Part shown: piece by piece, positions 7,733 through 18,712 of the stretch
Layout of the letters: each line of letters opens with the position of its first letter
Position numbering within the stretch: the stretch's first letter is position 1
Origin: a virus
Lineage: Duplodnaviria > Caudoviricetes
Length of the DNA stretch: 55,345 bases
Reading direction: 5' to 3' (one strand)
Virus record (IMG/VR): IMGVR_UViG_3300044971_001115
Span: 1 to 55,345 of that record
The notes under the pieces: generated by a model
What the model was told of the DNA's origin: nothing
Databases searched by the model: none
Seen by the model: only the letters and a program-made list of their open reading frames with translations
Program-made: the position numbers and the translations under genes

Positions 7733-10700
7733 ATGTCAGAATACCTAAGAAAAATCTTGGGTGCAGGCAAGACTCCCTTAATTAAATCCCAACCCCTTGC
7801 CGCACTTACCGCAGATGCTGGACCAGACATTCCCGGCGGCGAAGGTGCCAACAAAGGCTTCTGGCGTAAACAGCTACGCGACCCTAGAACTAAACAGTTC
7901 ATCCCTATGGATGCGTTTATCATATGTACGATAAATGTTCCAGGTGTAGGGATTTTCAAAGCTACCGGCCAGTTCAAGGGTAATAAAAAAATTGGCATCG
8001 CCACTATTCGAGTTGCTGGAAACAAAAATGTTCCAGACGGCGACTACCAGGTACCGCACACAGATGTTCTAGGTGCTGCCGAGGGTATGATCAAGCAGAA
8101 GGATCTAGACCGCGTACTAGATAAAGCTGACGGCGTCATTGACGACCCTAAGAATATTCTTCCGCCAGGAACCCCTATGGCTGGCGAATCGGTCAAAGCC
8201 CCCGTAGCTCTAAAAAAGGCAATCGACGGCGAAGAAGCTTTATCTAAAATCAAAGGCGAGGCCGCACTTGTTGCCAAAGAGGACGGACGTTTCCCTATTG
8301 CTCGTGGAGCAGGGGATATCAAAACCGCGGCTAAGCGTCAATACGCTGGAGTATTTGAGGCTTTAAAGAAAGAGCAGCCTGACCTAGTAAAAGACTTTAA
8401 CTCATTTGATGAGTTCTGGGCGTATGCCGACAAGAACATTGCTATCGACGCGTCTCAGCGTTGGGCAGACTCGGTAGACGAGATTCCCGAACTTACCAAA
8501 GCCACTAACCGAATCTATGCTCGTGATGTTCTTGGTATGGAACCAGACGGCCTAATCACTTTCTACCGTAACTCAATCAACCACCACAATGACCCAAACA
8601 AAGCCGCGGCCGGCTACATTTCGCTTGACCAGCGTATGGCCTGGAACTACAACTCCGACAAAGAGCAGTCTGGCCAGGACGGCCGCTATATCGTTAGAGT
8701 TAAGCCAGATGAGGTACTAGGTCTTCTAGGCTACAGCCGAGTTCCAGATGAGTATGGCGTTGTAGTTGGTATGGACGTCACGTCTCAGGAGGGTCGCTAC
8801 GAACGAGTAGGCGATCTAGCCTGGTCACCTCTAAACCCACTGATGGATCCGACTAAGACTCAGATGAGCGGCGGTGGCGACAGCTGGTTCCGTCAGTTCC
8901 GTCCAGCGTCTAGCTTTGACTTTCCTGTCTTAGACTCTAAGCCGTTTGAAGCTGGCGAAAGTTGGTCAGACTTCTATAAGCAGTTTAATATGCAGAAGGG
9001 CGACATCCCCAAGAAGTATGACGAACTGTTCGGAGAGGGTGCTTTTGATCAGGACTTCCCCGATAGCAGGGGAGTACCTAACTACAGTCGATTCGTAAAT
9101 AATGCTTTCACCGAAAAAGGTGGAAAGTACGCTTTTGATCCTCTATATCTTTCAACCGAGTTCCCGATGTCTAGTGCGACGTCGATGGAGCCTAACAAAA
9201 ATGACGAGCTCGATCTCGGTCTCAAGTTCCTATCCACCATTCAGGAACTTTCTGGCATCCCATTTATGGTCCACCGCAGCCACGATAAGAGCGACCCTCG
9301 CCTAAAGGTAAAAGAAGCAAAGACCAAAAAACCTAAGGCTGTAAAAGAGGCAGCAAAAGAAGTAGAGACTCCGGTTGGTTCCGTTGTTAAGGACCTAACA
9401 GGGTTCACTAAGGTCTCTGACCAGCTCGGCTCTAACAAGGGTGGACTATACAAAGACCCGATTACTGGTCAGCAGTTCTATGTTAAATTTGGCGACAAAG
9501 CTCGAATCGAGAACGAAGCCCTTGCGTCTGACATCTACAAACTAGCGGGAATCAACGCTACCGACCTACAAATCGGAACATTAGACGGCAAAGATGTAAT
9601 CTACTCGCCTTGGATAGAGGGCACGTCTAAAGATGTAAAAGATAAGATAATCCACCTCGCATCCACTGTAAACGAGAGAGAAACAAAAACTGATCCTAAA
9701 ATAAAAGCTTCTGTAGAAGAGGCTCAGCGGGGATTTGCTGTAGATGCTTGGTTAGCTAACTGGGACGCTGTAGGGTCTGCCTATGACAATCTAGTTTTTG
9801 ACAAAGATGGAAAGCCGCTCCGAGTAGATCCAGGCGGTGCTCTTCTTTATCGTGCTCGTGGTGAACTTAAGGGCGACGCGTTTGGTGATGAAGTAACAGA
9901 GCTGGACACCTTCACGCAATACTCTGGAACCCCCCTTGCCGGGAACACTGCTCTAGAACTATTTAGAAGTATGCCTAGACGCAGGAAATTTGAATCCGCC
10001 AAGATAGTCCACAAGATCACTCCGGAGCAGATCGAGCAACTGGTAGATAGCCGTATCTCTGATCCAGAAACTAGAAAAGTTCTTAAAGACCGTCTAATTG
10101 CTCGACGTCAGAACATTATTGAACGCTTCTCTCTAGAGGGTCTTGTCTCAGACAAGCAAGAAAAAGACGGAGACTCTTACGTAGACAAGGTCTACTATGA
10201 CGACATTCGGCGTTCTGAAGAACTTATGGCACCTGGCGGCCCTGGCGGTCCTAGAATCTCTACTGATGCCGGAGATACAAGCGGATATCTAGACCGATAC
10301 TTTGATGACAACGCTCCTCTTGTTGACGAGGTAGATGGTAATGATATTAAAGAAATTCTTCAGGCCACTGTAGTAAAAGATATGGTCAATACCGTCAACA
10401 AAGAAGAGGGGAACGATTCTTCTGCCAACGAGGTATTTAGAAGAGGCCTATACGGCACTTTAGTTGCTCAGCACAACATTGTCTACTCTGAACTTAAGTC
10501 TGAAGATTCTGACTTTGCTAATCAGTTTCCTACTTTTAACTCTTACTTTAAGTATGTTACAGAAGAGCTGGCGATCAGCGACAAACTCCTAGTTGGAGAT
10601 GTTAATAATAGCCTAGCCAGTGACTATAAAAAAGAAGCAGAGCACGCTCAGTCGTGGTCTACCTACTTTAGCCCGGAAAAAATGGCTCTTCAGAAGAAGA

Positions 10701-18712: not shown

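Follow-up and report, generated by a model that had tools for sequence, protein, structure and literature searches.

Genome context and the giant gene

The window analysed here is the whole of the virus record IMGVR_UViG_3300044971_001115 (Duplodnaviria; Caudoviricetes), a linear IMG/VR contig of 55,345 bases with an estimated completeness of 32%. Inside the terminase-portal-capsid block, after the portal gene and ahead of the capsid genes, lies a giant gene whose product, P0001, is composed of at least 10 modules, with several distinct conflict-type domains joined in one polypeptide (Table 1). The neighbouring genes were assigned by PHROG matches, by which a major tail protein and a head-tail adaptor were likewise identified; all these genes are on the same strand, and P0001 is accordingly encoded among virion and late genes. 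Its ATG is found 4 nucleotides (nt) past the stop codon of the upstream ferritin-like open reading frame (ORF). We consider that P0001 is probably a 'polyvalent' effector protein associated with the virion of an uncultivated Actinomycetia phage. A first-pass annotation of the same DNA had described about seven ADP-ribosyltransferase (ART) domains of four types in one polypeptide; the ORF is indeed single and uninterrupted, and the present analysis yields four solid domains, which belong to two types, besides two probable ones and a possible one, so that seven stands as an upper bound. Residues of P0001 are numbered as (coordinate - 7733)/3 + 1.

Table 1. Positions of the modules of P0001 and of the neighbouring genes in the window (aa, amino acids).
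Feature	Coordinates	Strand	Motifs, matches and remarks
P0001, single ORF, 3,659 aa	7733..18712	+	no internal stop; probable polyvalent effector protein
N-terminal small beta-barrel (aa 44-121), Tudor/SH3-like	7862..8095	+	predicted model; VIA-align
N-module copy 1 (aa 160-520)	8210..9292	+	YRN (R279), GYxS (S297), [EQ]DE (E340)
Kinase-like domain (aa 542-829, ~290 aa)	9356..10219	+	invariant GSNxGG, YVK, DAWxANWD, DN, DxGG
N-module copy 2 (aa 901-1240)	10433..11452	+	paralogue; keeps YRN, GYWS, GRY; TDYE at the [EQ]DE position
Alt/VIP2 ART a	12551..13141	+	VFRG, A-A-T instead of STS, EDE
ParB-like domain 1 (aa 1875-1975)	13355..13657	+	GHHR motif, with AEGHHRLIAARKAG
Arr-like candidate (aa 2123-2238)	14101..14445	+	FYHATNRELKVGD ... 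FYRVKPVG
Alt/VIP2 ART b	14711..15283	+	VYRG, S-A-S, EKE; PHROG 802 Alt-like, E = 3.5e-20
ParB-like domain 2 (aa ~2668-2744)	15734..15964	+	degenerate; hhalign
Alt/VIP2 ART c	16100..16600	+	LYRG, S-T-T, EKE
SopF-like unit	17465..18691	+	~155-aa extension (aa 3245-3400) and DUF3626 domain (aa 3402-3653)
Terminase large subunit	3441-4844	+	PHROG
Portal	5498-7273	+	PHROG, E = 8e-104
Ferritin-like gene, 150 aa	7277-7729	+	Pfam Ferritin, E = 2.2e-16; between portal gene and giant gene
648-aa ORF downstream of P0001	18924-20870		Pfam DUF5824, E = 1e-7; weak ParBc_2 and HiPIP-like matches
Second giant ORF, 2,642 aa, 3' of the P0001 gene	21782-29710	+	UvrD-type helicase at aa ~645-1307; other parts unassigned
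1,575-aa ORF	30439-35166	+	PHROGs: head maturation protease, portal, virion structural protein over aa 750-1160
Major head protein	35236-37338	+	PHROG

Alt/VIP2-type domains

Searched against Pfam, the whole of P0001 gave three matches to ADPrib_exo_Tox (PF03496; E = 1.4e-42). The three segments compared with this family separately, here termed copies a, b and c, scored 45.8, 72.7 and 43.6 bits (E = 5.9e-12, 3.2e-20 and 2.7e-11, respectively), all of which pass the curated cut-off of 23.4 bits, and all three sites also exceeded it in a six-frame family search. Their starts lie within about 20 bases of the three VIP2/Alt-like domains proposed in the first-pass annotation, and on sequence grounds their membership in the family is solid. 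In addition, a phmmer comparison of whole P0001 with the PDB detected a sole match, the Vis toxin (4xzj_A; E = 0.012), which falls in the region of copy c, and an NCBIfam scan of the whole protein recognized 0 families.

In an alignment of the three domains with 29 homologous domains of related proteins (32 in all), the Arg of [FY]RG is present in all 32 and ExE in 31, including all copies in the window. Ser occupies the first position of the STS motif in 30 of the 32 domains, copies b and c among them; the two exceptions are copy a, whose A-A-T confirms the TAAT that the first-pass annotation had pointed out, and its nearest homologue, which is found in P0010 (A-T-T). Because this homologue shares the loss of Ser and both domains keep R and ExE, copy a is at least as likely to represent a variant subfamily as an inactive copy. 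The copies are recognizably related to one another by BLASTP (a versus b, E = 5e-22; a versus c, E = 4e-8), and the only DNA repeats within the gene are two short families of 20-25 nt with 68-85% identity. Since DNA-level repeats of the domains are absent, the three are old paralogues, not recent duplicates.

The C-terminal DUF3626 domain

At the C-terminus of P0001, the segment aa 3401-3659 matched DUF3626 (PF12294) at 33.6 bits (E = 2.8e-8; cut-off, 27 bits), and the same region matches PHROG 8314 (E = 1e-9). The DUF3626-like domain of the first-pass annotation is thus a solid assignment as judged from these profiles. In P0001, P0002, P0003 and P0024, the domain always comes with a preceding stretch of some 155 aa (aa 3245-3400 in P0001). 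When eight DUF3626 domains including that of the window were aligned, RP-I-[YF]-G, Y-G and E-x-Q-[IV]-H-G-G were found to be invariant or conserved.

DUF3626 is the domain present in the Salmonella effector SopF (PMC6682159), which is described as an ADP-ribosyltransferase with an I-Y-E catalytic triad (structures 7DN8/7DN9; PMC10333799). As in SopF, DUF3626 is recognized in the phage domain above the Pfam cut-off, although this match spans only profile positions 21-113 of 301, and SopF itself (7dn8_C) is the only non-spurious PDB match of the eight-domain phage profile. This match is weak (E = 0.44) and in the right place, and any mapping of the I-Y-E triad onto the conserved phage residues would rest on its alignment. 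Matches of the profile to the helices of focal-adhesion-kinase FAT domains (E of about 0.01-0.08) were judged to be spurious helix matches to the leading helices. The situation in the phage is otherwise different from that in Salmonella: SopF is a type III effector, whereas the domain in the window is encoded by a phage, and because the eukaryotic ARF GTPases that SopF needs for activation and the V-ATPase subunit that is its target (PMC10333799) do not exist in bacteria, both the target and the activation of the phage domain must differ. In the literature searched, DUF3626 appears in Salmonella papers only, with no mention in the main texts of PMC5512222 and PMC9503650; in the latter, a 2022 survey of ARTs, the main text has no mention of SopF either.

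The N-module, a conserved N-terminal unit

The two regions that the first-pass annotation had described as paralogous, atypical ART-like domains are copies of a unit that we call the N-module. The two copies were related by BLASTP at E = 1e-18 (29% identity over 167 aa), their likeness reaches about 320 aa, and the family hidden Markov model (HMM) spans aa 863-1083 at copy 2; their sequences thus identify them as true paralogues, and this part of the earlier description stands. Searched against 1.84 billion representatives, a profile of the two copies picked out 68 large metagenomic proteins (E <= 0.001). The best-matching stretch starts before residue 300 in 56 of these 68 proteins, 54 of 70 family proteins share the first 200 residues of P0001, and the N-terminus is kept in P0002 and P0003. 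An internal second copy exists only in P0001, P0002 and P0005 (of 71 family proteins). The regions that follow the N-module vary: among 44 aligned members, the cargo includes ADPrib_exo_Tox in 28, ART in five, ART-PolyVal in two, GNAT in two, and ArdC-N plus MPTase-PolyVal in one. No Pfam family matched the N-module, and a search of 10 pieces at E <= 10 gave only three unrelated chance matches (E = 0.13-0.18). By sequence comparison, therefore, the N-module is a conserved, as yet unnamed N-terminal unit that heads a family of large phage proteins, the C-terminal cargo of which varies.

The N-module was also found in 24 IMG/VR loci, 22 of which carry the terminase and/or portal of this lineage (69-92% identity). 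The order in the window, portal, ferritin-like gene and N-module gene, is recognized in 14 of the 24 loci, and in eight the N-module gene is situated just upstream of the terminase gene. Of the open frames with an N-module in these loci, the shortest has 446 aa and the longest more than 3,417 aa.

Structural prediction of aa 1-540 gave a model for which the lists from Foldseek against PDB and BFVD and from the wide VIA search were dominated by the N-terminal barrel, and aa 160-520 were therefore refolded alone. This model, built from 47 sequences, is a confident one (predicted local distance difference test, 93.6; predicted template-modelling score, 0.90), and no structural match to it was significant. 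The weak Foldseek rows include ART2.2, ExoS, a fungal NADase and KptA/Tpt1 entries. In the wide VIA search, the top 50 are a mixture of globins, histones and integrase N-domains with ART-type chains, namely, C3bot2 (Z 3.1, root-mean-square deviation 4.0, 117 aligned residues), C3stau2 (Z 2.8, 120 aligned), diphtheria toxin and a homologue, KptA, the Rhs toxin TreX, SAIP and CNFy. In a second look, the 289 Foldseek candidates were submitted to VIA alignment, of which 285 chains were aligned and 26 reached Z >= 2. All of the 25 entries listed are ARTs or have the ART fold, with Z values of 2.0-3.2 over 72-138 residues (model residues 3-215): ExoT/ExoS, ART2.2, Tpt1/KptA, iota Ia, CDTa, C2-I, VIP2, Vis, the Chelona toxin, a diphtheria-toxin homologue, TreTu, CNFy and IcmQ. 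We take CNFy domain 4, IcmQ, TreTu and APE0204 to have the ART fold. The individual Z values lie within the range that the tool deems uninformative, and the weight is in the exclusivity of the matches over many ART families. A feature search of the Atlas gave sub-threshold leads only, to Arr-ms and Tox-ART-HYD1 clusters (0.82).

Three groups of residues are conserved in the 44-47 sequences compared. Y278-R279-N280, at the end of strand 1, is invariant or nearly so; G294-Y295-x-[ST]297 lies on strand 2 and is followed by a helix, with G294-Y295 invariant or nearly so; and [EQ]-D339-E340 directly precedes a strand, with D339-E340 again invariant or nearly so. Along the predicted strands, R279, S/T297 and E340 consequently follow one another as the residues of an R-S-E triad would. 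Because the weak structural matches listed in the second look are exclusively of ART fold across families and the conserved pattern is R-S-E-ordered, the N-module probably has a very divergent ART-like fold; that it is catalytically active is clearly less probable than the fold itself.

Arr-like candidate and other modules

The Arr-like domain of the first-pass annotation was not confirmed and is a possible ART, the weakest candidate of the seven. Arr-ms (PF12120; cut-off, 25 bits) matched it at 14.9 bits (E = 0.031) over 21 residues, corresponding to profile positions 1-21 of 99, and among PDB sequences (E <= 10) ARR-2 (9iba_A) alone was found, at E = 1.6. This non-significant alignment consists of two colinear pieces, FYHATNRELKVGD and GYFYRVKPVG, in which EDDP of Arr stands opposite SAFP and the His is present in FYHAT; with a two-sequence profile, nothing in the PDB was matched at E <= 10 and the ARR-2 match was lost. 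In the Atlas features, the domain reached 0.90 to an Arr-ms cluster (three of 30 matches), and unnamed clusters scored higher (0.92). Its one relative, in P0003, is 85% identical, and no further relatives were found in a set of 5.8 billion proteins (near and longer lengths), IMG/VR and two metagenome scans. The active site of Arr consists of H-Y-D residues. The candidate is like Arr in its small size and in the N-terminal 'FYH(A/G)T..L.(V/I)GD' and 'G.(F/I)Y.V.P.G' motifs, colinear with those of ARR-2, and unlike Arr in that some 50 aa are inserted between these motifs, in the lack of an acidic residue at the aligned position of the Arr Asp, and in scores that are all below threshold.

The barrel near the N-terminus of P0001 most closely resembles Tudor/chromo-type barrels (best VIA-align Z, 7.9), and might act as a capsid-targeting element. 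It lies within the first 200 residues mentioned above, and some 40 disordered residues come before it as a leader. The kinase-like domain is common to 16 family proteins and 20 phage records and belongs to no Pfam family; its profile matched in the PDB only Legionella LepB (4jw1_A; E = 1.3) and an S-layer protein (E = 1.6). Presumably it is an atypical kinase, a reading that we base on its motifs and keep as a lead. It is also seen in large genes annotated as 'ADP-ribosyltransferase' in Pseudomonas, Aeromonas and Yersinia phages. The first ParB-like domain matches PHROG 3147 (E = 2.4e-6), ParB-like PHROGs (E = 3e-4 to 2e-3) and, under the cut-off, Pfam ParB_N (E = 0.022); the profile of this domain detected the second one by hhalign with a probability of 35% (E = 3.9e-4, 73 columns). 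Three parts of P0001, aa 1261-1600, 2531-2660 and 2981-3244, are unassigned to any module.

The modules are joined by linkers rich in Pro, Glu and Lys. One of them, EEGGGFTL.PDPEDVVPE (positions ~16655-16710, aa ~2975-2992), recurs in near-identical form at junctions in P0001, P0002 and P0003 between differing modules, and may point to a joint left by recombination or to a site of protease cleavage.

Modularity of the family

Based on local HMMs, the 71 family proteins differ widely in the number of VIP2 copies: none in 30, one in 15, two in 13, three in eight, four in three, and five and seven in one each. The protein with seven copies, P0024 (4,285 aa), also possesses DUF3626. P0001 itself is a mosaic, with aa 1-1816 and aa 3246-3652 being 66% and 75% identical, respectively, to P0002, and aa 2014-2624 and 2766-2993 being 86-88% identical to P0003, and its modules recur in other orders among the relatives. 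Because the VIP2 counts vary within the family and P0001 is a mosaic of its relatives, the multi-ART architecture is, by these comparisons, a property of the lineage, and is not peculiar to this window. Extra modules absent from the window exist in P0002 (aa ~2240-2440 and the C-terminal ~250 aa) and P0003 (aa ~1190-1380); by eye, they contain H- or R-type ART-like motifs, e.g. 'LRHSAPP...VFRVKVP' and 'YR..S...G.G.Y.T', and the ART repertoire of the lineage may be wider still.

Lineage, host and neighbouring genes

The terminase shares 72.6% identity with its counterpart in Actinomycetia phage DSL-LC01, in which a 3,289-aa gene is likewise present after the portal gene, and about 64% with the terminases of 190-kb Microbacterium phages. 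From these resemblances, the host may reasonably be taken to be an actinobacterium (Actinomycetia). At the nucleotide level, positions 1-25000 of the window gave no match by megablast among 50,697 phage records.

A homologue of the ferritin-like gene is found 3' of the portal gene in 19 of the 24 related loci. A gene of this kind is an odd partner for head genes. In one of these loci, L020, a homologue of the 648-aa ORF directly follows the ferritin-like gene, and the N-module gene is upstream of the terminase gene. The 2,642-aa ORF possibly encodes another polyvalent or a DarB-like virion protein. The 1,575-aa ORF, in which no Pfam family was matched, is likely a head protease fused to further parts, and is a candidate for processing the giant protein.

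Comparison with known systems

In the polyvalent proteins described by Iyer, Burroughs, Anand, de Souza and Aravind in 2017 (PMC5512222), 2-15 effector domains are combined per polypeptide; these proteins are encoded among virion genes and were proposed to be packaged and injected, and ARTs, reported in 1 to 12 copies, are their commonest protein-modifying domain. P0001 is like them in being a giant multi-effector polypeptide encoded among late and virion genes, with multicopy ARTs together with kinase and ParB domains, the order of which is reshuffled among orthologues. However, their ARTs are of the H-Y-D type (Tox-ART-HYD2/ART-PolyVal), and the Alt/VIP2 R-S-E clade, which is the one repeated in P0001, is set apart in that paper (PMC5512222). 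P0001 differs further in adding DUF3626 and the unnamed N-module, although the architecture lists of the paper may hold similar proteins.

About 44% of phage ARTs were reported in head-packaging contexts, near terminase and portal genes (PMC9503650), and for Microbacterium phages MuF-VIP2 fusions, in Percival and Goodman, and virion-associated 13-kb genes have been described (PMC7302621). P0001 resembles T4 Alt and the MuF-VIP2 fusions (PMC9503650, PMC7302621) in having R-S-ExE ARTs beside head genes on a presumably head-associated N-terminal part, in its PHROG 'Alt-like' matches and in the delivery with DNA that is expected from such an arrangement. In contrast to the single ART of those proteins, three VIP2 domains and other ART types are contained in the 3,659 aa of P0001, which lacks Phage_Mu_F; the position of MuF is taken by the unnamed and possibly ART-like N-module. 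The interpretation given here is thus largely anticipated by the literature. The idea of the first-pass annotation that several host targets are attacked from one gene corresponds to the published polyvalent-protein concept (PMC5512222) and is not new as a principle; what is new is the N-module family and the combination of domains. Of that idea, the multi-effector anatomy holds, and the nucleic-acid or signalling-nucleotide targets that were also suggested are pure inference, leaning mostly on the Arr-like domain.

Proposed function and alternatives

In the function that we propose, the polypeptide would consist of the disordered leader, the barrel and the 360-aa N-module, followed by a cassette-like string of effector modules: the kinase-like domain, N-module copy 2, three Alt/VIP2 ARTs, two ParB-like domains, the Arr-like candidate and the SopF-type ART. 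P0001 would be synthesised together with the head proteins and would enter the capsid by means of its conserved N-terminal unit. A head protease might cleave it into pieces at the Pro/Glu/Lys-rich linkers, and the products would be ejected along with the DNA. In this way, several NAD+-consuming enzymes would each reach host proteins of their own within minutes of the start of infection and modify them, in the manner of T4 Alt. The present analysis shows the domain identities, at the strengths stated above, the gene context and the shuffling of modules among relatives, whereas packaging, processing, injection, catalysis and targets are inferred.

Several observations weigh against this proposal. 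The packaging of P0001 is suggested by gene position and by analogy; no Phage_Mu_F (PF04233) was found in P0001 (Pfam, E <= 1-5) or in 44 family members (E <= 0.01), so that membership in the MuF fusions was rejected, and the Pfam scans of P0001 revealed no known capsid-targeting sequence. In a tblastn search of aa 1-1600 against the 50,697 phage records, only the kinase-like part was matched, and these records therefore offer no cultured phage with the N-module for comparison. When the N-module was compared by hhalign with the VIP2, DUF3626 and Arr-like profiles of P0001 itself, the probability was below 1%; these three profiles are also unlinked to each other by hhalign, and both results are as expected between distant ART clades and are uninformative. 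Foldseek gave nothing at E <= 1e-3 for the N-module model, and VIA-align against 48,161 representative chains gave no Z >= 5 (best, 3.7). At the first position of [EQ]DE, copy 1 has Pro, and in copy 2 the motif is rearranged to T-D-Y-E. Of the other domains, VIP2 copy a is missing the STS serine, DUF3626 scored 23.3 bits, under its cut-off, in the scan of the whole protein, and membership of the Arr-like domain in the Arr family was rejected, every threshold having failed.

It is conceivable that the N-module is not an ART and plays the part that MuF has in other phages, as an adaptor or head-incorporation module specific to the lineage, its conserved residues serving folding or binding to the portal or capsid; the count of ART-type domains would then be four or five. 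Such a role fits the fixed N-terminal position followed by variable cargo, the proximity of the gene to packaging genes in 22 of the 24 loci, the lack of a significant fold or profile match to ARTs, and Z values that are all below 4, a range of common arrangements according to the notes of the tool. We nevertheless regard it as rather unlikely, because the weak matches listed in the second look are solely of ART fold and from many families, whereas non-ART chains ranked higher by Foldseek (e.g. ToxA methyltransferases) failed to reach Z 2, and because the invariant residues follow the order R ... S/T ... [EQ]-D-E on strand 1, on strand 2 plus helix, and before a strand. The internal copy (aa 901-1240; also in P0002 and P0005) is moreover hard to square with a pure anchor, and the two roles are not mutually exclusive. 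Both roles would be united if the N-module were an unrecognised, active R-S-E ART family by which a whole lineage of freshwater actinophages also brings its proteins into the capsid. As many as seven ARTs, drawn from four mechanistic classes (the divergent N-module, arginine-type Alt/VIP2, SopF-type and Arr-type), would then be injected in one polypeptide together with a kinase and ParB-type domains, each for a different host target; in this full form, the proposal is unlikely.

Two further explanations concern the protein as a whole. P0001 might never be packaged, and might act late in the cytoplasm as a host-takeover or anti-defence factor, or as a weapon against competing phages, with the position in the head block reflecting timing. 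The lack of a detected MuF domain or known capsid-targeting signal and the eight loci in which the N-module gene is upstream of the terminase gene, not after the portal gene, would agree with this, and ART, ParB and kinase domains also exist in non-packaged conflict systems (PMC5512222). Yet the gene is within the terminase-portal neighbourhood in 22 of the 24 loci, surveys tie such a context to head packaging (PMC9503650), and the comparable giant genes and MuF-VIP2 fusions of Microbacterium phages are reported to be virion-associated (PMC7302621); we thus think a purely cytoplasmic role quite improbable. Least probable of all seems to be the possibility that P0001 is an internal head protein whose ART-type domains have mostly lost their activity or only fill out the structure, in which case the array would not hit several targets. 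The A-A-T of VIP2 copy a, the deviation of both N-module copies from the family [EQ]DE, the Arr-like candidate, which has no acidic residue in its only ARR-2 alignment, and the age of the copies, which show no DNA-level repeats, are in keeping with decay. Against it, the VIP2 domains of the family, including all three of the window, keep R (32 of 32) and ExE (31 of 32), the family-invariant residues of DUF3626 are present in the copy of the window, and the fact that old paralogues have kept their catalytic motifs for so long speaks for selection on activity.

Biological implications

Head-packaged ARTs such as T4 Alt are the classic means by which phages reprogram the host in the first minutes of infection. 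If P0001 is virion-associated as proposed, P0001 and its relatives represent this strategy at an extreme in an uncultivated actinophage lineage, in which Alt/VIP2 ARTs have been multiplied to three in P0001 and up to seven in one relative, and have been joined to an ART of SopF type, whose family has until now been known from an effector that Salmonella directs at eukaryotic cells. If the domains are active, each would be a ready probe for essential or defence-related targets in Actinomycetia, and the shuffling of modules among the relatives is a natural experiment in how phages diversify their effector sets.

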